Below are positions 1,908-16,324 of a stretch of DNA of 20,000 bases, in pieces. Position 1 is the first letter of the stretch; each line of letters starts with the position of its first letter. Where the stretch lies: positions 1,610,491-1,630,490 of the forward strand of contig JABVCE010000005.1 in NCBI GenBank assembly GCA_014905635.1. Direction: 5' to 3'. This stretch comes from Scenedesmus sp. PABB004 (Eukaryota). The notes beneath the pieces are model-generated. The model saw nothing but the letters and a program-made list of their open reading frames with translations, was not told the origin of the DNA and made no database searches. A program made the position numbers and the translations under genes.

Positions 1908-4900
1908 ATGCCGGGCCACGCGTCCACGCCCGCGCTGATCAATCCCGAGTACTTCAAGGCCGACTTCAGCGTGGACGGGTTTTTGGTGAAGCTGACGCAG
2001 GACGTGCTCGAGCGCGGCGGCGCCGGCGGCGGCGGCGGCGGTGCGGGCGGCGCCGCGACGCGCGCCGATGGCGCGCCGATCAGCAACGAGGAGTGCGCGG
2101 CGGCCACCATTGACCGCGTGCAGCGCCTCATCAAGCGCTTCATCCAGGCGGAGTATGAGATCGCGTCGCTGGGGCAGGACGTGACCGCGAAGCTCGCCGA
2201 GCTGCACGGCGCCGCCGACGCTGACGAGGCGCACTACAAGGCGCGCCCACGCGGCGGCGGCGCGGCACTGGGGCGGGCGGGCGGGCGGCGGCCGCGTGCC
2301 GGGGCCGCGCGGGCGGCGTGCCGCGCCGCCGACCCCGCCGGCCGCCGCACGCGCAGGCCGAGGTGCGCACGCTGGAGCGCCTGGCCGAGCGCATCAAGGC
2401 GGGCATCCGAGACATCGACGGCCGCGTGAGCGCGGTCAGCCAGACCGCCACGCGCGTCGGCGACCGCCTGCAGGTGCGTGTGCGCCGCGCCGCGCGCGGC
2501 TGCGCGCGCCCCGCCACGCCCCGCGCCGACGGCGCGCCGACGCCCCCGCGCGCAGACGGCGGAGGGCCTGCGCGTGCGCTGCCTGGAGGCGCAGGAGCTC
2601 ATCGCCCACCTGCAGGCATTCTCCTGCCACGCCGCGCCGGACGGAGACTGGGGCAAGCTGCCGCCGCTCTTCACCAACGACGCCACGTTCGCAGAGGCGG
2701 CGGTGCGCCGCGCCGCGCCGCCCCGCGCCGCCCGTGCTGGCCGCGCCATGCTGCCGTGTGCGCGGGCTGACCGGGGCTCCGCGCCCGCCGCCGCGGCGCG
2801 CGCAGGCGGTGAGCCGCCGTCTGGCGCTGCTGGCGGGCGACGTCGCGGCCGCGAAGCAGCGCACGCGGATGGGCGCGCCGCCGTTGGACTCGCCGAGCGC
2901 GCAGACGCCCGGCAACCTCGGCGGCATCGGCAGCGTGGAGCACACGCTGCGGGTGCGTGCTCCGCGGCGCGCGCCGACGCGCGCCGGCGCCCCGCACTTA
3001 CACACAGCCGCCACGCGGCTGTGCCGCGCGGCCACCGCCAACGTTTGCTCGCCGCCGCGGCGCCCGGCGCAGGTGCTCGAGGGTTACGCCAACTGGCTGG
3101 AGAACCGCGTGGTCGGCCGCTTCGATGCGGCGGTCGCGGACGACGACCTCGCCGGCCAGGCCGCGGCGGTGGCCATCATGACCGAGCTGGGCAAGGAGCG
3201 CAGCATCGCGCAGGTGCGGCGGCGCGCGGCGCGCACACGCGGGCGGGCGGCGGGCGCGGGGTGCGCGCCCCGCTCGCGCCCAGTTCACGCCGGCCTCGCG
3301 CGGCGCCGCCGCCGCCGCCGCGCCGCGCGCAGCGCTGGGTTGCGTCGCGGCCGATGTTCCTGGCGTTCTCGCCCGAGGTGCTCGACGACTGGGTGCGCCG
3401 CGCGAGCAAGCAGGCGCCGCCGCCGCCACGCGCCGGCGGCGGCGGCGACGGCGGCGACGGCGGCGACGGCGGCGAGGACGAGGGCGAGCAGGAGTGCGAC
3501 CTGGTGTCGCGGCAGGCGCGGGCGCTGGCGGCGCTGTTCCGCGACATGCACGCGAGCGTGAAGGACGACGTCGCCGCCGCGGCGTGTGTCTTCCGCGGCC
3601 CGTCCGGCCCCGGCCTGGTGCTGGAGATGTACCTCACTCGCCTGCTGGAGCAGAATGTGCAGGCGGCGCTGGAGCGGCTGCTGCTGCCGGGCGGCATGGG
3701 CATGGCGGCGCTCGCCGCGGCGGCGGCGGGCGCCGGCGGCGGCGGCGGCGCGGCCAGCGGCTCGGCCGGCGGCGCGGGCGGCGGCAGCGGCGGCGGCGCT
3801 CCCGGCCTCGCCGCGACGGGCGGGCTGGGCAGCTTCCGGGAGCGCGCGACCAGCTTCGCCGCGAGCTTCTCGGCCGGCGGCGCGGCGCCGGGCGGCGGCA
3901 GCGGGGGCAACCTCGCGGCGCTCGCGGGCAGCGCCGGCAGCGGCAGCACCGGCGGCGCCGGCCCGCCGCCGGCCGCGCTGCAGCGCGCGCAGCTGCGGCT
4001 GCTCGCGGAGGCGTATGGCAAGACCAGCCGCCTCGCGCTCAACCTGGAGCGCGCGGTGCGCGGCGTCGCGGCGGTGGACGTGCTGAGCATGGCCGAGAGC
4101 CTCTGGCCCGCCCTCCTGGGGGCCTACCCCTCCCTGGAGCTGGACTGGCTCGCGGCGGCGTGCGCGGAGGAGGTGCGGCGCGGGGGACGCGCCGGCGGCG
4201 CCGCCGGGGGCGGCAGCGCGCACGAGCTGGGCGGTGCCGCGCGCCGGCCACCGGCCGCGCCGCCGACCGCGCGCCGCGCCGCGCGCCCGCGCGCAGGCGG
4301 CGCAGCTGGACTCGCCGGAGCTGAGCGTGCCGTTCTGCCTGGCGCTGATGCGCAACAGCGCCGAGGCGACCGCGCGCGCGCTGAAGCTCAGCGGGCCGGC
4401 GCACGCGGCGCGCAGCGCCCGCATGCTCTTCCACCACCTCGTGGCGGCGCCGCCCGCGGCTGCAGCGGCAGCGGCGGGCGGCGCGGGCGGCGCCGGCGCG
4501 CCGGGCGACGCGGGCGCCGGCGGCGCCGGCGCCGCCGCCGGCGGCGCCGCGCCGGCCGCCCACCCGGGGTGCCTGCTGGAGCAGCTGGCCAGGTGCGCGC
4601 GCGCGCGCAGGCGGTCGGCCGCTGCGCCGCGCCGCGGGCTCGTCCCCGCGCCGCGCGCTCGCCCACGCGCCGGCGCGCCGCGGCGCAGGCACATCATCGG
4701 CGGCGTCGAGCACTCGCTCGACCTCTGCAGCGCCGGCGGCGGCGGCGGGCTGGGCGGGCTGCTCAAGCTCGGCTTTGGCTCCGCCACCGCCGCGAGCAGC
4801 CGCGACGCGGCCGCCGCGTTTGTGGGCGGCAAGGTCCGCAAGGCGCTCGAGGCGGCGCACGCCGCGGGCGGGGTCATGGCCGCGCTGCAGGTGCGCGGCG

Positions 4901-6190
4901 CCGCGGCCGCGCGCGCGCGGCGCGGCCCCCCGCGCGGCGGCGCGGGGCCGGCCCGAGCGCGCCGCGCCGCCGGCCCCCGGCTGCCGCCGCAGGCCCACTT
5001 CAGCGACGTCGTGTCGCCCGCGCTGGCGGCGAGCCCCGCGGAGCTGTCGGCGGCGAGCGGCGCCGCGCTGGCGCTCATGCGCGCGGCGGAGGGCAGCATC
5101 AGCGTGGTGCTGCGCAAGAGCGTCGACGCCTTCATGCTGCAGGCGCGCCGGGAGGGAGGGCGCGCCGAGCGCGCCGGGCGCGGCCGGGCGCTCAGGCTGG
5201 GCGGCTGCGCGGCGGCCGCGCGCAGCCTCCCCACCCGCCCGCCCGCCCGCCCGCCCACCCGCCCGCCCGAACGCCCGCCCGCCAGCTCGAGCGCGTGCTG
5301 GGCGGCGAGCAGCGCAAGGCCGACTTCATGCCCCGCGACAGCGCGGTCAGCTTCGACAAGCCCACGTCCGCCTGCCTCCTCGGCACCGCGCTGCTCGCGG
5401 CGCTCGGCAGCTCGGCGCGCGACACGCTCGCGGGCGCCAACCGGCGCGCCTTCCTCACCGAGGTGCGGCCCCGCGCCGCGCTCCCGCCCCGCTCTGGCGC
5501 GCCGGCGGGCGCCGCGGCGCCGCTCGCGCGCGCTGCCGCTCCGGCGCGCACCGGGCCGCGCCGCGCCGCGCCGCGCCGCCGCCGCCGCGCGCGCCAGGTG
5601 TCGCGGCGCACGCACGCGCTGCTGCTGGCGCACATGTGTCGCTTCAGCTTCAGCCCCATGGGCGCGCTCAAGTGGAAGGAGGACGTGAACGAGTACGCCG
5701 AGGTGCTCGCAGGTGCGGCGCGCGCGGGGCCGCGCTGCGCTGGGCCGTGGCGGGGGGCCGCGCTCCGCTGGGCCGCGGCGCTGGGCCGTGCAGGCGCCAC
5801 GACGCGGGGGCGTGACCCCGCCGCGCTGTGCACGACCGGCGGCCAGGCTTTGGCGTGCCCGCGGCCAACGACGACATGGCGCATCTGCAGCAGCTGGTCA
5901 ACGTCCTCGTCGTCGCGCCCGACAGCCTGCTCGGCCTGGTCAACGGCTCCCTGCGCATGGCGCACAGGCGAGGCGGCGGCGCGCGCGCGCACGGCGCACG
6001 GCGCGCGGCGGCCCGCGGCGCCTCGTCCCGGCGGCGAGCGGGCGTGCCGACCGCCCGGTGCCGCGCGCGCAGGGACGCGCTGCGCTTCATCGCGCTGCGC
6101 GAGGACTTCAGGACGGCCAAGGTAGACGGCAAGACGCTGCAGGAGCTCTTCTCCGGCGAGGGCATGGAGGGCCAGCTCGGGGCGCGCTGA
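1908..6190 (+). CDS. SEC10: Exocyst complex component SEC10 (EXOC5), 13 exons: 1908-2240, 2357-2473, 2556-2702, 2806-2952, 3073-3213, 3333-4172, 4297-4592, 4689-4890, 4993-5142, 5286-5462, 5598-5712, 5847-5967, 6073-6190
   Basis: N-term FKADFSVDGFL; ATRVGDRLQ coiled coil; LEGYANWLENRVVGRFD; EQRKADFMP...DKPTSAC; C-term FSFSPMGALKWKEDVNEY...NVLVVAPDSL...RDALRFIALREDFRTAK resembles plant SEC10. All splice phases are consistent; 3 GC-AG introns (donors 2241, 5143, 5968). Confidence 0.92.
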
Positions 6191-6270
6191 GCGGCGCGTC
6201 GTTTGCGTGTTTTTCCTTTGTTTTGCGTCGCGTGCGTGCGGCGCGCGGTGTCCACTTTTTCGGCGAGATT

Positions 6271-6275
6271 TGTAA
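6271..6275 (+). terminator. TGTAA polyadenylation signal of SEC10
   Basis: TGTAA 80 nt downstream of the SEC10 stop in a T-rich UTR. Confidence 0.7.
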
Positions 6276-6439
6276 CATGTTTGTGTCCTCGAGGGGGGTG
6301 TTTTGGGGTGGTCAGTTTGGCGATGTGGGGTGTTTGTTACGCTTGTGTGTTGCTGGTTATATGCGCTGCAAGCGCGTTCGGCTGCCAACTGTCCTTGGGA
6401 GCAGCCCCCCAATGGGATCCAGCCTGCGATGTGTTGCAG

Positions 6440-6512
6440 GCCCGGTTAGCTCAGTCGGTAGAGCGCAAGGCTCTTAACCTTGTGGTCGTGGGTTCGAGCC
6501 CCACATCGGGCG
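6440..6512 (+). tRNA. trnK-CUU: tRNA-Lys (anticodon CTT), copy 2
   Basis: Identical to 1112-1184; followed by TCCA-TTTT terminator. Confidence 0.97.
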
Positions 6513-6772
6513 TCCATTTTGCACCGCACACGCCCTGTTGAAGCCCCCACGCACGCCCCACGCACGCCCCGCGCCACGCCCGACCCAACGGGCCGCGCGC
6601 CGCGCCGCGCCGGCGCCCGAGCAGCCCGCGCCGCCGCACGCCGCGCCGCCGGCAGCCGCCGCGCCGCCGCGTCGCAGCCACCGGCGCGCGCGGCGGTGCG
6701 TGCTGAGCTGCCTGGGGCACAGGTACACAGCCACAGGCAGGCGCCGCAGCTGCTGGCCCAGGGGACGCCGTG

Positions 6773-9900: not shown

Positions 9901-10074
9901 CGCGCGCGCCGTGCGCGCGCGCGGGGCGCGCCCCCGGGCCGCGGCCCCGCCGCGCGACGCCCGGCCGCCGCCGCCGCCGCCGCGCGCGCGCAGTATGCGT
10001 TCAGCGGCGCGGCCAAGGAGCGCAGGCGCTACAAGCCGCAGGTCGTGTGCGGCAGCAGCACGCCGGTGGCGTGA
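6941..10074 (+). CDS. Acetamidase/formamidase (FmdA_AmdA family) with predicted signal peptide; 13 exons: 6941(or 6932)-6969, 7286-7436, 7553-7748, 7842-7957, 8068-8128, 8248-8443, 8605-8719, 8833-8895, 9011-9109, 9217-9360, 9483-9618, 9747-9892, 9994-10074
   Basis: Motifs STVHWGYF, GVHILTGPVYVCGAEPGDVLQVEILD, NSIPPTRTGGNMD, TLYFPVEVAGALLSAGDAHVAQGDSEFDGTGIETS, DFQVHQVVDGNWG; N-term MAKIHVTARCLTALLALLAAAAPAPARA-Q; splice phases consistent; TGTAA at 10201-10205. Confidence 0.9.
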
Positions 10075-10200: not shown

Positions 10201-10205
10201 TGTAA
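10201..10205 (+). terminator. TGTAA polyadenylation signal of the amidase gene
   Basis: TGTAA ~127 nt after stop 10074. Confidence 0.65.
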
Positions 10206-10414
10206 CAACCAGTGCGCCGCCGCGCGTGGCGCGCGCACTGCGGGGCGCCATCCGCGCGGCAGCCCGCTCGAGACAGCTGCTGTCGTCGCGGCCCGCGCGG
10301 ACCCCGCCAGCGCGGGCCCAATGGCGTCGCATGAGACACCTTAGGCTCGCTAAGGGTCGTGGCCGGCGCGGTGCCGGCCGCGGGGCTGGTGCGGCGGCGG
10401 CGGCGTCGGAGCGC

Positions 10415-13400
10415 ATGCCGCCGCTGGCGGCGTCGCAGCCAATGGAGGCCCCCCTCAGCCGCTTGCGCAGTTGCCGGGACGGAGCGCGCGACGACCCGGC
10501 AGCTACCATTCTGCGGTGCGGTGTGCAGCATGCGGGGCGGCACCCGCGCGCAGCAGCGGCGACCGCGGGTGACGCGGCCGCCACGCCGCCGCCGACGCCC
10601 CTCCCGCCGCTCTGAACGCAGCACCGCGTTCAGCGCGGAGCACCTGGTCGACCGGCTGCTCGAGCCCGACACGCGGCGCCTGCTGCAGGGCCTGGCGCCG
10701 GCGCAGCGCGCCGCGTCGCTGCGCAAGCTCTACGCGCGCCTCGACGGCCTGGCGGTGGCCGAGCCGGGCGGCGGCTGCTGCGCCGGCGCCGCAGCGCCGG
10801 CGGCCGGGCCCGCCGCGCCAGCGTGGCTCTCGCGGCTGCGCGGCGCGCCGATCGTGCAGCTGCACGGCAGCGGCGAGCTGCTCAGCTGCGACGAGGCCTG
10901 CCTCGCCGCAGACGGGGCCGCGGACGGCAGCGCGCGCTGCCGCCTGCACCTGTGGCCCGCCGACCTCGGCGGCGAGGCGGAGCTGGCGCTCTTCACCGCG
11001 CCCGCGTCCACGCTGCTGACCCCGGCCGGCGGCGCGGCGCCGCTCGGCTTCGCCGACCCCACCAGCCTCGGCGCGTACGGCGGCGCGCTGCTGCGGCGCC
11101 TCGGCGTGCGCGACGCGCCGCTCGCCGCGCTCGTGGACGATGCGCTGCGCCAGCAGGAGGCGTGCTTCATCAGCCACGAGCACCACGCGAGCCTCGTGGC
11201 CCTGCTCTTCCGCCAGCGTGCGCGCCTGGACGGCGCGGCGCGCGACGCGCTGCGCGCGCGCCTGCGCCTGCGCGCCGCGCCGTGCGTCGCGCACGACTGC
11301 TTCGCCGTCTCGCGCTACCCCCTCGCGGGCAGCCTCTGCCTGCCGCCCGGCGGCGGGGCCGCCGGCCCCGCCGCCGCGGGCGTGCCGGCGGAGCTGCAGC
11401 CCGACCTGGAGGCCGCCGGCACGGCGTTTGTGCACGCGCAGTACCTCACCGACCCGTTCCTCGCGGCCTGGCTGGAGCTCGAGCTCGGCTGCGCGCGCCT
11501 GTCGCTGGACGCTGCCGTGGCGCGGCTGCTGCGCCTCTACGGCGACGGCGCCACGCTGTGGCTGGGGCTCACGCAGGAGCGCCACCTGGCGCACGTGGCT
11601 TTCATGGCCCGCGCGCACCGCCACCTGACCCCCGCCACGGTCGCCACGCTGCGGCAGTGGCTGCGCCTGCACGACGCGGCGTCGCCGGCCGCGGCCGAGG
11701 CCGGCGCGGTGCCCGCGCGCAAGGCGTGCGAGCTGCGATGGCCGGACGAGTCCGGGTGTGACGCGTCGTCTGTGCTCGCGTCGCACCTGGAGGCGGCGGG
11801 GGAGGAGGCCTCCGTGCGCGCGCCTGCCGTGCACCCCTGCTACGTCCGCGCGGCGGCGCTCGACGTGCGCAGCGCGGGGGAATGGCGGCGGCTGCTGGGC
11901 GACGCGGGCGTGCGGGCGTCGGGGCCCGACGAGGTGCGGCGACGGCCGCGGCTGGCAGGCGCTCGGCGCGAGCAGCTGGTGCGCCCCGCGCTGACGCCCG
12001 GCTGGCGCGCCTCCCCCGCCCACCTGCGCGCGCAGCTGGTCTTGGCACTCCTGGGCCTCCACACCGCCGAGCGGCTCGACGCCCTGGCCGCCCATCTGGG
12101 CATCAGCCTGCAGCACGTGCTGCGGCAGCAGCTGCAGGCCCTGGCCGCGCTGGGGGGCCAGCTTTCGGCCACGACCGCCGCGGCGGCTCGAGCGGGCCTG
12201 CTGCTGCTGAGCTCCTCCGGCGAGCTGCTGCGCTGCAGCGCGCTGTGTCTGCCGCCGCGCGAGCCCGCGGCAGCGGCGCTGCTGCAGGTGCTGGCGACCA
12301 ACGGCGGCGGCTGCCGTGAGCCGCTGCTGCACGCCGAGCTGGCGGTCGAGGCCCACCGGGAGCTCCTGGTCGACACCCTGGGCGTGCGTGAGCTCGACGC
12401 CGCAGCGCTGTGCAGGGCCATCGCGACGCCCTCCCCCATGCGCGACCTGGGCGCGCCAGACACCCGGGCAGAGGACCTGGCGGTGTGTGTGTGGAGGGGG
12501 GGGGGGGGCAGGCAGGGCGCCCGCGCGCGGCGCTCAGGCGCGGGCGCGCCACCGCGGCCGCGCTGAGCGCTGCGCGCCGCCGCCGCTCGCCGCCCGCTCG
12601 CTGCCGGGGGCGCGCAGGCGCTGCTGCGCTGCCTCTCCTGGCAGCAGGGCGACCCGGGCGAGGTCACGCAGCAGGCGGCGCTGGCGATCTACGCTGAGCT
12701 CGCTGAGCTCGCACGCTGCGGGCGCCACGCCGACCGGCTGGGGGGGCTGCTCGCGGAGCATGTGCTGCTGGTGCACAGCGGCGGCGGGCGCCTCGCGTGG
12801 GCGAACGCGCGGGGGTTGCTGCTGCCCCGCAGCGGGCGCAGCAAGCAGCGCTGGCGCAGCGCGCACCTGCCGGACGACCCCGAGCTGGCAGAGCTGTTTG
12901 CCGGCGGCGACGACGCTGTGCTGCTCGCGGTGCCGCCGGACGAGCTGCCGCCGCTGCTGCCGCTGCTGCGCCGGGCCTGGCCGCCGCTGCCGAGCCTCGC
13001 GGGCAGCGTGGCGTGCGACGCCGTCAGACCCGGCGGCGCGCTGCAGCCCGACGCGGGGTGGACCGAGCGTCTGCGCGGGGCGGCGCCCCTCGTTGCCCGT
13101 GCTCTGTACCACACAGACGGCGACGCCTTCGCGCGCGCGGCGGGTGACGGCCGGCTGCAGGCGCTCGCCGCGGGTCTGGACGCGCACCGCGTGCCCGGCC
13201 TGCGGGAGCGGCTGACCCTGGCCGGCGGCCAGGCCGTGCGCACGCGGCCCGCGCTCGCGGCGGTCGAGAGGCGGCGAGGCGGCCGCTTCCGCCTTTTGCT
13301 CGACGCCGCCGCGAGCGGCCACCGACTGACGATGCGGGTCGCCGCCGCGTGCGCTGCGCACCTCACGGGCGGCGGCGGCCGCGCCGCGGCGACGACCGGG

Positions 13401-14378
13401 CTCGCGCAGGCCGTGGCGGCCGTCCTGCAAGCCTTGGGGCGCAGCCCCGGCGCGGCGGGCCTTGCCGAGGCTGATGACTACCTGCGTGTGGTGTGCCGCG
13501 CCGGTGACATCCCGCGCAGCCAGCTCACGTCGATTGACGGCCTGGCCACGCCGCCGGCGGGCAATGGCGCGCCAGAGGGCGGCGGCGCCGCGGCGCCGGG
13601 GCCGGCGCCGCAGGGAGCCGCGCCCGAGGCGCCTTGCAGCCTTGGCACGGCGGAGAGCCTGGACGCCACCATCGCCGCGGCGCTGGGCGACGTGCAGGCG
13701 GCGGCCGCGGCGGCGCCCGCGACGGAGCTGGAGCAGCTGCGCCGCCGCACGGCCGCGCTGCGCCTCGACGCCCGCGGCGGCGACGCCTGCGGCAGCTGGT
13801 TCAGCGCGGCGGCGGCCGAGCTCGAGTGCAACGCGCGCGGCAACGCGGTCGGCATCCTCGGCGAGCTCTACGCCTTCAGCTGGCTCCGCCGCATGCTGCC
13901 GGGCTTTGGCGACGCGTGCTTCGCGTCGGGCGCGCGCCGCCACGCGGGCCTGCCGCCGCTCGAGGGCGCCGACGAGCCGCCGTATGACTTTGTCTACGAC
14001 GACGCGACCGGGCGGCTCAGCGGGCGGGAGCGTGGCACGCCGCCCGTGCGCTGCTACATCGAGGTCAAGTCCACGAGCGGCGCTGGGCACGAGGGCGTCC
14101 GCCTCTCGGCGCGCGAGTGGGCGCTCGCGCAGGAGGCGCACGCGGCGCCCGGCGAGCAGCTGTTCGTCGTGCTGCGCGTCGCCGGCGTGCACGCCACGCC
14201 GCAGGCCGGCGCGCCGCGTGTCGTCGCGCTGCTGCCAGACCCGGTGGAGCTGGTCGCGCGCGGCGAGCTGCGCAGCCGCCTCGTGGGCAGCGACATGGTG
14301 CTGTCGGGCTTCATGCCGAGGGACGGCACCGAGCTGCAGCCGCCGCCCTGGCGCTGCCGCGCGGCGTGCTGCGCGTGA
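10415..14378 (+). CDS. ~1206-aa protein with internal repeats and a C-terminal NO VEIN-C (DUF3883)-like PD-(D/E)XK nuclease domain; exons 10415-10515, 10622-11933, 12036-12482, 12618-14378
   Basis: C-term GILGELYAF...PPYDFVYDD...CYIEVKSTS...VRLSAREWALA...FVVLRV...LLPDPVEL matches the NOV-C pattern (GE..A, YD, IEVK, S.xEW); HLPDDPELAELF resembles the NOV-like PDD..L..LF motif; three GT-AG introns give a continuous frame (3621 nt). Start codon (10415 or 10442) is uncertain. Confidence 0.75.
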
Positions 14379-14510
14379 CCCACCGGCGCTGAAAAACCGC
14401 GCCATTTTCTGTTTGCTGCGCCGGGCGGCGCCGCGCTCTGAACCGCCCCAACCGCGTCGGGCCCGAGCCGCAGCCGCCGTGCACGGCGCAGCTGCGCAAC
14501 GAGCGGCCGT

Positions 14511-14515
14511 TTACA
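14511..14515 (-). terminator. TGTAA polyadenylation signal of RPT5
   Basis: TTACA on + strand, ~70 nt beyond the RPT5 stop. Confidence 0.65.
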
Positions 14516-14585
14516 GCGCCCGCCCGCCCGCCCGCGCGCGCGCGCGCGCACGCGCGCCCGCCGGCCGCCGCGCCTGAGCGGCCGC

Positions 14586-16324
14586 TCAGGCGTAGTACAT
14601 GAGCGTCGCCTTCTTCTTGGCCTGCACCGCGACGATGCCCTCCACAAAGTCCTCGTGGTTGACCTCCAGGCCGTCGCGCCGCAGCGCGAGCATGCCCGCC
14701 TCGACGCACACGGCCTTGAGCTGCGCGGCGTTGAAGTCGTCGCTCGAGCGCGCGAGCTCCTCAAAGTTGACGCCCGGGCCCACGTTCATCTTGCGGCTGT
14801 GGATGCGCAGGATCTTGGCCCGCGCGTCCTCGTTGGGGTGCGGGAACTCGATCTTGCGGTCGAGCCGCCCCGAGCGCATGAGCGCGGGGTCGAGGATGTC
14901 CGCGCGGTTGGTCGCCGCGATGACCTGCCGCGTGCGGCGCGCGGCGCGGCGCGGCCGTGACGCGGCGCCGCGCACAGCCCGCGCGCGCTGCCGGCCGCTG
15001 CCGCGCGGCGCGCGCGCGCCGCCGCCGGCGCCGGCGCCGCACCTTGACATTGTCGTTGCTGGTGAAGCCGTCGAGCTGGTTGAGCAGCTCGAGCATCGTG
15101 CGCTGCACCTCGCGGTCGCCCGAGAGCTCGCTGTCGAAGCGCTTGGTGCCGATGGCGTCGATCTCGTCGATGAAGATGATCGCCGGCTGCTTCTCCTTGG
15201 CGAGCGCAAACGCGTCGCGCACCATCTTGGCGCCGTCGCCGATGAACATCTGCACCAGCTGCGGCCCCGCGAGCTTCAGGAACGTCGCGTTGGTCTGCGC
15301 CGCGCACGCGCGCGCCAGCAGCGTCTTGCCCGTGCCCGGCGCGCCGTACAGCAGCACGCCCTTGGGCGGGCGGATGCCGAGCTTGACGAAGCGATCCTTG
15401 TGTTGGATGGGCAGCACGACCGCCTCGACCAGCTCCTGCGCACCGCGGCGCGGCGGGCGGGCGCGGCAGGCGGGCGGGCCGCGGCGGCGGCGGCGTGAGC
15501 GCGCGGGCCGCCGGCGCTGCCGGCGCTGCTGGCGCTCTGCCGTCCAGGGCGCCCACTGCCCAGGCCACCCGCTGCCCAGGCTGCGCTGCTGCCGCGCGAG
15601 CTGCCGCCGCTGATGGTGCCCACGCCGCCGCCGCTGCTGCTGCTGCCGTCGCTCCTGCCGCCGCCGCCTGCGCTGCCGCTCCAGCTGCCGCTGCAGCTCC
15701 AGCCGCCGCTCCAGCCGCCGCTCCAGCCGCCGCCCTAGCCGCTGCAGCCGCCGCCGCGCCGGCCCGCGCGCGCGCCTGGATCTGCTTGTCGAGGCCGCCG
15801 ATGTCGCTGTAGTCCTCGGTCGGCTTCTCGTCCACCTCCATCGCCTTGACGCGGCTGTCGTACTCCGCGGGCAGCGTGTCGAGGATGAGGTAGGAGTCCT
15901 TGTTCACGCCGACGAGGTCGCCCGGGCGCAGCGCCGTCGCGTCGACGAGGCCGACGACGGGCAGGAAGATGGTTTGCCGCGTGCTCGTCTTGAGCACGAC
16001 GCACTTGCCCTGCCGCTGCGAGTCGAGGTCGGCGGTGGCGCCGTCCTCCTCCTCCTCCTCCTCCGGCTTGACGTCGAGCACCTCGACGATGTTGCCGACG
16101 AGGTACGGGAGCTGGTTGTTCAGCTTGATTTTCTCCTTGTTCTCCTTGATCTTGTCGCGCAGGCCGTTCTGGTCAAGGCTGAGCCGGGTGCTCTCGTCCT
16201 TGAGCACCCGAATCTCGTTGTCCAGCAGCCGCGCGCGCTGGGTGATGGCCTCAACAGACATGTGCTCAAACTCCTTGGGCAGCACGTCCTCCGCGTCCTC
16301 GAACAGCTCCTTCTCGATGTCCAT
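14586..16324 (-). CDS. RPT5: 26S proteasome AAA-ATPase regulatory subunit RPT5 (6A/PSMC3), 426 aa; exons 16324-15776, 15435-15043, 14924-14586
   Basis: [64 protein letters not shown], Walker [26 protein letters not shown], Walker [24 protein letters not shown]-terminal HbYX-type YYA; intron 1 is GC-AG. Confidence 0.97.
15585..15757. repeat. Imperfect (GCN)n triplet tract with 12-mer CCAGCCGCCGCT units inside RPT5 intron 1
   Basis: gct/gcc/gca triplets in phase, with tandem 12-nt units around 15699-15735. Confidence 0.7.

Follow-up and report, generated by a model that had tools for sequence, protein, structure and literature searches.

An ATPase-less Tiamat/NO VEIN homologue with a conserved C-terminal nuclease in the alga Scenedesmus sp. 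PABB004

The stretch of DNA analysed here (the window) comprises 20,000 nucleotides (nt) of contig JABVCE010000005.1 from Scenedesmus sp. PABB004 (assembly GCA_014905635.1, positions 1,610,491 to 1,630,490 of the forward strand). Between an acetamidase/formamidase gene (FmdA_AmdA) upstream and a convergent proteasomal AAA ATPase gene downstream, it holds a four-exon gene encoding an ATPase-less homologue of the Tiamat/NO VEIN family, whose namesake Tiamat is described as protecting bacteria against phages (Yuan et al., bioRxiv 10.64898/2026.09.30.754977). Since the family's ATPase was looked for and not found, the gene is neither a strict Tiamat nor a NO VEIN orthologue. Its family matches, domain order, missing ATPase, intact catalytic residues and nuclease fold, all read from the sequence, very probably make it a member of this family.

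Architecture of the gene and its product

When joined, the four exons yield 3621 nt encoding 1206 amino acids (aa) and a stop codon, free of internal stops and frameshifts, and all three introns have GT-AG borders, which reproduces the gene model of the initial annotation; all coordinates of the gene refer to the plus strand of the window. Exon 1 (10415..10515, 33 codons plus 2 nt) shows no detectable Tiamat homology and was placed by splice and sequence signals only, as was intron 1 (10516..10621, 106 nt, GT-AG, phase 2); it is the least certain part of the model, and an alternative in-frame ATG lies upstream of the modelled start at 10331. The solenoid region begins in exon 2 (10622..11933) and continues in exon 3 (12036..12482). 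Intron 2 (11934..12035, 102 nt) is in frame and contains no stop, and splicing it raises the repeat-profile score described below from 16.7 to 21.0 bits, restoring a repeat unit across the junction. Intron 3 (12483..12617, 135 nt, phase 0) must be spliced, because it carries an in-frame stop. Exon 4 (12618..14378) encodes the end of the solenoid, a conserved beta-sheet region, a linker, the nuclease, a short tail and the stop codon.

The C-terminal NO VEIN-C/DUF3883 PD-(D/E)xK nuclease proposed in the initial annotation is borne out by Pfam, PADLOC, the predicted structure and the conserved columns. Together with extra C-terminal strands, it occupies aa 1021-1185 (13818..14312), and its four motifs begin at 13860, 13980, 14055 and 14103. 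The Pfam NOV_C family, whose cut-off is 22.1 bits, matches exon 4 with 25.4 bits and the isolated domain with 28.4 bits. The catalytic residues E1036 (13863-13865), D1077 (13986-13988), E1102 (14061-14063) and K1104 (14067-14069) are all kept, and they fall in columns conserved in 44/47, 49/50, 46/50 and 50/50 relatives, respectively. An AlphaFold2 model built with 50 aligned relatives reached a predicted local distance difference test score (pLDDT) of 94.5 and, as modelled, is a restriction-endonuclease-like alpha/beta core with a glutamate on helix 1, an aspartate and an ExK motif. Foldseek returned no match to this model at E<=0.001, with Hjc and HincII ranking at the top, and a wider fold search gave middling, family-consistent scores for Hjc (Z 7.0, root-mean-square deviation 3.6, 104 residues aligned), SwaI (6.8) and NhoI (6.6), so that the closest fold matches are Hjc resolvases and restriction enzymes (SwaI, NhoI, HincII). 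A homodimer prediction for the nuclease, made with no alignment, scored 0.00 and is evidence neither way.

Ahead of the nuclease lies the repeat body, which the initial annotation had likened to that of sacsin and NO VEIN. Comparison of the protein with itself barely reveals repeats (best z 3.4 among 105 block pairs), whereas four units, at aa 189-210, 303-371, 437-483 and 569-649, are picked up by a profile of the Tiamat repeat unit. The protein scores 21.0 bits with this profile; the best of 500 shuffles reaches 0.3 and the reversed sequence -1.3. Exon 2 carries the first two units and most of the third, and exon 3 carries the first part of the fourth. The profile draws on 127 segments; these come from 27 full-length Tiamats chosen for body coverage, four of them proteins and 23 from the 77 prokaryotic loci that were fetched. 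Judged from sequence, the repeats are real but degenerate, and the repeat body of the initial annotation stands in this form; a possible fifth, partial unit at aa 35-130 was seen by eye only and does not rise above shuffles. No Pfam family, DUF3684 (PF12449) included, matched exons 2-3, a divergent alanine-rich sequence that was scanned exon by exon. ESM Atlas features link exon 2 to DUF3684/DUF8348 clusters at 0.98, a match of low recognition value. A deep whole-protein profile scored -1.1 bits on the N-terminal half (best of 202 sequences, 16 reported), hhalign gave the same half a probability of 12.5%, and the AlphaFold2 model of exon 2 as a single sequence was unusable (pLDDT 40.4).

The part of the body just before the linker (aa 696-850, 12843..13307) is better conserved in profile matches: residues 696-838 match the corresponding region of full-length Tiamats with 56.7 bits against a 4-sequence profile and 42.5 bits against a 27-sequence profile, and 44 of 51 conserved body columns are kept. 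By its position, this region probably corresponds to what the two preprints on the family describe as a beta-sheet or inactive metalloprotease-like fold; a scan for HExxH found none anywhere in the protein. An alanine-, glycine- and proline-rich linker follows at aa 915-1020 (13500..13817), where relatives have long low-complexity linkers at the same place.

What the protein lacks is the N-terminal ATPase, as the initial annotation had noted. The six frames of the window contain none of four ATPase motif patterns, and a profile of the ATPase and transducer matched no frame there or in the 40 kb upstream while detecting the sacsin-like and Hsp90-like control loci (1198 frames in total). Pfam found no SACS match in the gene, which thus shows no GHKL/HSP90-like ATPase with transducer, and no remnant of the lost region rose above 300 shuffles in exon 1 and the upstream frames. 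The room for such a region is also small, as had been pointed out before: the amidase stop lies at 10072-10074, leaving 340 nt to the ATG. On the full-length eukaryotic relatives P0041, P0118 and P0122, the four units map colinearly onto anchors 2-5 of five, and exon 2 starts, by eye, just after their anchor 1. Because of this alignment, about 500 N-terminal residues appear to be missing, namely the ATPase, the transducer and part of repeat 1; the five-anchor count in these three proteins is partly built into the repeat profile.

The rest of the genome was searched exon by exon, an insensitive procedure, since a search with the NOV_C family returned 0 matches and missed even the window gene. 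SACS gave seven matches, six in one sacsin-like locus on contig C76 and one in an Hsp90-family gene; TmtA gave four (three on C76, one Hsp90), full-length P0041 gave two, both within the window gene, and two DNA motif patterns gave one match (on C76) and none. The two Hsp90-type loci (L009, L013) are, by their motifs, presumably Hsp90-family genes and not Tiamat ATPases. The sacsin-like gene on C76 (G000:C76:1328939-1337513; L016, L017) has two SACS blocks over the family cut-off and the only match in the genome coding for ELxQNADD. A weak match on C35 (E 0.045), which is antisense to a hydrolase-like gene, was rejected. No paralogue was found in these searches, and the window gene is the sole Tiamat-type gene detected.

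Relatives and descent

Exon 4 matches five PADLOC families, all of them TmtA (Tiamat), with a best E of 1.6e-16, and phmmer against 1.84 billion representatives found 146 relatives. An ATPase motif lies near the N-terminus in 34 of 35 stored relatives of at least 1450 aa (one of them a cluster twin), and in a Pfam scan of 29 relatives 16 matched SACS, most below its cut-off. The relatives diverge fast, with 29-41% identity in the body and nuclease. Among prokaryotic loci, L068, L072-L077, L083, L084 and L088, many of them from gut Bacillota, encode proteins in which a Tiamat/sacsin-type ATPase block occurs twice in tandem, once near residues 50-400 and again near 700-1200.

A second group of relatives consists of low-complexity Tiamat fragments (P0001, P0003, P0007, P0016, P0017, P0018, P0023, P0028, P0157, P0159 and others), a sizeable and probably chlorophyte set with at least four nuclease subgroups. 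These subgroups suggest an expansion in Scenedesmaceae-like algae, in which only P0018 carries a species name (Tetradesmus obliquus). Searches for longer proteins returned none among 8000 candidates with exon 4, none among 1716 with the P0003 body and, among 7999 with the P0041 body, only P0041 itself. That these word-indexed searches found no full-length chlorophyte member is weak evidence. Loci of algal relatives were sought in metagenomes with P0003 (0 of 71 stretches) and with alignment A4 (2 of 34, of which the one that was read, L019, is prokaryote-like), and viral homologues were found neither in 155 stretches of viral contigs nor among 50,697 phage records.

A quick tree of 45 rows and 231 columns, computed from the body region, places the window protein in a 17-row clade with a Shimodaira-Hasegawa-like approximate likelihood ratio test (SH-aLRT) value of 97. 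The clade contains P0018, P0118 and the low-complexity fragments taken to be algal and excludes every one of the 26 GTDB loci as well as two bacterial-type proteins; the tree was flagged for long branches and for compositional bias, so that the position within the clade is left open. A nuclease tree of 103 rows, made by a quick method only, gives the window row no resolved placement: the row belongs to no starred set and lies apart from the 75-row group that holds most of the ATPase-bearing proteins. An apparently shared intron points in the same direction as the body tree. In five of seven relatives inspected, homology begins right after the glutamine at the column where exon 4 starts and is preceded by unrelated or too little sequence, while in P0116 and the annotated P0018 the homology runs on across this point, as it would in spliced or intron-free forms. 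The position of intron 3 thus appears to be common to P0001, P0003, P0157, P0127 and P0043, as judged from proteins and unspliced gene calls and not from DNA. A recent transfer from bacteria was considered and rejected on the eukaryotic clade in the body tree and on intron 3. We infer that the ATPase was lost within the eukaryotic clade, loss being the simpler reading because three clade members and the full-length prokaryotic relatives carry it.

The initial annotation had taken the low intron number of the gene (3, against 12 in each of the two upstream genes, a count that agrees with our reading by eye only) as a sign of a different history. This is not supported: the body belongs to the eukaryotic clade, intron 3 is apparently common, and the downstream neighbours are intron-poor as well, with 3 introns in 3.6 kb of coding sequence in the gene itself, 2 in 1.28 kb in the proteasome gene and 0 in 1.06 kb in a transporter gene.

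The layout itself has also been described before. Yuan et al. state in a single sentence, which gives no species or test, that several eukaryotic Tiamat-like proteins without ATPase keep DUF3684 and the PD-(D/E)xK nuclease, and name them Type IX-A (10.64898/2026.09.30.754977); the layout is thus not new, and the window gene adds a member to it. Like Type IX-A, the protein is eukaryotic, longer than 900 aa, without ATPase through N-terminal truncation (its 5' end being set from sequence), Tiamat-homologous in its DUF3684-type middle and in possession of its nuclease; it differs in that its link to DUF3684 comes from ESM Atlas features and not from a Pfam hidden Markov model. That it is eukaryotic and no contaminant follows from three GT-AG introns, intron-bearing neighbours, a 1.63-Mb contig and the eukaryotic clade. 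Green-algal Tiamats are placed in clade 8 by the same preprint and have low-complexity insertions (10.64898/2026.09.30.754977).

With bacterial TmtA the protein shares solenoid repeats, the conserved beta-sheet region, a flexible linker and the C-terminal nuclease, which is closest to the PDLC03971 type and to proteins of about 1830 aa; it differs in its introns and eukaryotic origin and in lacking the ATPase and transducer that Tiamat defence requires. P0041, P0118 (Jimgerdemannia flammicorona RUS33063.1) and P0122 belong to the same body clade and have the same nuclease subtype and colinear repeats, whereas they keep a SACS-type ATPase and five repeat anchors, and the window protein begins near their residue 500. 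The bodies of these three resemble the PDLC03966-type bacterial P0121, and their nuclease subtype is closer to the bacterial proteins of about 1830 aa than to that of P0121; an ancient nuclease swap is possible. The Tetradesmus obliquus protein WIA16247.1 (P0018), likewise from Sphaeropleales, has no ATPase and retains the nuclease, a portion of the body and the final repeat; it measures only 369 aa, is internally shortened and may reflect either a gene model that is incomplete or a relic, which makes it weak evidence for a shared loss.

Plant NO VEIN (AT4G13750) has in common with the protein the NOV_C nuclease, the solenoid body and a family tie to an antiviral response. Its N-terminal region of about 1000 aa, with three conserved motifs followed by the ATPase, is absent from the window protein, in which only 34 aa precede the solenoid; the two were set apart by description and not by direct sequence comparison. 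The repeated SACS ATPase units of sacsin (SACS/AT5G23110 type) are absent as well. The C-terminal NOV_C of HmaA is the same Pfam domain, fused to a Snf2 helicase and not to solenoid repeats, as described by Liu et al. (PMC11232893).

Surroundings of the gene

The proteasomal AAA ATPase gene downstream is one that we take to be RPT5. Its exons have a GC content at third codon positions (GC3) of 0.96-0.98, compared with 0.94 in the window gene. The two genes are convergent, with about 207 nt between their stops (14378-14586), so that their 3' ends may overlap, and the sole TGTAA-type signal between the stops, at 14511, belongs to the minus-strand proteasome gene. A short inverted repeat at 10339-10357 (6-bp arms, 5-nt loop, seen by eye) lies inside the 340-nt gap on the amidase side and may be due to chance. 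Probable GC-AG introns occur in the best-fitting models of the proteasome ATPase gene (intron 1, 15775) and of an alpha/beta hydrolase gene (intron 1, 17387).

Further upstream, recent segmental duplications lie at 619-1439 and 5914-6768 of the window and at 4991-5243 and 5898-6656 of locus L101. The two window copies are 93.9% identical over 855 columns, and further upstream pieces in L101 reach up to 99.6%. The duplicated stretch holds a tRNA together with the last exons and the 3' untranslated region of a gene at about 1908-6190, presumably Sec10-like and part of the exocyst, which passed no Pfam test. A tRNA-Lys(CTT) gene occurs in three identical copies spaced about 5 kb from each other, each within a duplicated block, at 1112-1184 and 6440-6512 of the window and at 6098-6170 of L101.

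Possible activity and competing explanations

The reading we put forward, tentatively and with its predicted function included, is that of an inherited eukaryotic Tiamat/NO VEIN-family gene that has lost about 500 aa at its 5' end (the GHKL ATPase, the transducer and part of the first solenoid repeat) and would act as an ATP-independent DNA-cutting enzyme against foreign DNA. The protein would still be made and would be a divalent-metal-dependent DNase or nickase preferring single-stranded or supercoiled DNA, like Bacillus cereus Tiamat, which cuts single-stranded DNA (10.64898/2026.09.30.754977), and the isolated 142-aa NOV_C fragment of HmaA, which Liu et al. report to nick supercoiled pUC19 with Mn2+ (PMC11232893). 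Because this fragment acts on its own, an ATPase is not necessarily required for catalysis. The solenoid and beta-sheet region might bind substrate or partners, the linker would tether the nuclease, and without an ATP-driven N-terminal clamp there would be no Tiamat-like opening and closing, leaving an activity that may be either ungated and low or triggered when a ligand binds. The most likely role would then be the cutting of foreign DNA, e.g. viral replication intermediates.

The initial annotation had called the gene a candidate defence effector, and this proposal has since gained a family link, as Tiamat is antiphage and, according to Lageide et al., knockdown of NO VEIN in Nicotiana benthamiana raises potato virus X 1.7- to 2.25-fold (bioRxiv 10.64898/2026.09.30.755639); the gene stays a candidate. 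Several observations weigh against the reading put forward here. The E44A substitution abolishes Tiamat defence, which shows that ATP hydrolysis is required (Millman et al. 2022, as cited in 10.64898/2026.09.30.754977), and by this analogy the loss of the ATPase would be as compatible with a relic as with a newly designed effector. The share of conserved nuclease columns kept (30/36, 0.83) is below the relatives' median of 0.89, and residue 1055 is phenylalanine (W1055F) in a column that is tryptophan in 50/50 relatives, in a test that was lenient and biased in favour, the relatives having been chosen by their likeness to the window protein. The conserved residues may moreover be older than the truncation, and no chlorophyte relative with a full gene structure sets the age and spread of the ATPase loss. 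In a region of 78% GC, where in-frame intron 2 has a GC of 0.91 and intron GC about equals GC3, an open frame and a high GC3 are weak signs of selection. No TGTAA polyadenylation signal was found on the plus strand after the stop of the gene, a weak point, since the last two genes of the window also lack one. Finally, the neighbours are housekeeping genes and offer no defence context.

A close rival, which we consider doubtful, is that a full-length Tiamat gene was deprived of its 5' half by a recent rearrangement, leaving a 3' remnant that is non-functional or barely expressed and has not yet acquired stops. The ATPase requirement of Tiamat defence, W1055F in an otherwise invariant column and an exon 1 without Tiamat homology would fit such a remnant, as would its start only 340 nt from the amidase stop, with the TGTAA signal of the amidase at 10201. 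The duplications 3.6-15 kb upstream (copies 94-99.6% identical) show that the region has been rearranged recently, but their breakpoints leave the gene untouched. A precedent exists in Thlaspi arvense, in which NOV is pseudogenised according to the preprint of Lageide et al. (10.64898/2026.09.30.755639), whereas the reported recurrence of Type IX-A in several eukaryotes argues against a relic (10.64898/2026.09.30.754977). So do 3621 nt without stop or frameshift, three canonical introns and the kept catalytic residues.

It is improbable that the gene has been exapted, outside defence, as a nuclease working without ATP or as a solenoid that binds nucleic acids, with functions in DNA repair or in RNA or chromatin work, comparable to plant NO VEIN in development and gene induction. 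As a nuclear developmental factor, NOV seems to exert its antiviral effect indirectly through defence-gene induction, which was blunted upon knockdown, while two single-stranded DNA geminiviruses were not significantly affected, as the preprint reports (10.64898/2026.09.30.755639), and a single copy amid housekeeping genes would suit such a role. Fast divergence at 29-41% identity and at least four nuclease subgroups would be more typical of conflict genes, however, and the NOV-specific N-terminal motifs cannot be present, since nothing precedes the solenoid.

Least to be expected is an ATPase supplied from elsewhere, by a split gene with its other half unassembled or hidden by an intron, or by a separate protein acting in trans, for instance the sacsin-like one encoded on C76 with its two SACS blocks: nuclease-less Tiamat-like proteins (Type II-A) exist and trans effectors have been proposed (10.64898/2026.09.30.754977), and the own-genome search was insensitive enough to miss the window gene with NOV_C, but a hidden ATPase half is unlikely, as the SACS, TmtA, P0041 and two DNA motif searches gave only the sacsin-like locus, two Hsp90-family genes and the window gene, and the 40 kb upstream gave nothing.

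A broader and rather remote extension would be that Sphaeropleales lost the Tiamat ATPase more than once and retained a growing set of solenoid-nucleases as ATP-independent, ligand-gated DNases against algal DNA viruses. Were this true, the gene would be a natural minimal Tiamat in which the solenoid alone senses and the clamp can be dispensed with, and its host would be one that can be cultured and has testable viruses.

The October 2026 preprint of Yuan et al. leaves open whether eukaryotic homologues of Tiamat have remained antiviral and, in the text available, reports no antiviral assay of a eukaryotic homologue (10.64898/2026.09.30.754977); the question is only partly answered for plant NO VEIN by Lageide et al., in whose available text algae are not mentioned (10.64898/2026.09.30.755639). 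In the literature covered, from which subscription journals are mostly absent, no paper devoted to an algal ATPase-less Tiamat was found. With the layout already described, the value of the Scenedesmus gene is that of a test case and not of a discovery: as a compact natural copy without ATPase and the sole Tiamat-type gene found in its genome, it may serve to ask whether the ATPase gates the nuclease and whether Type IX-A proteins are functional or debris.

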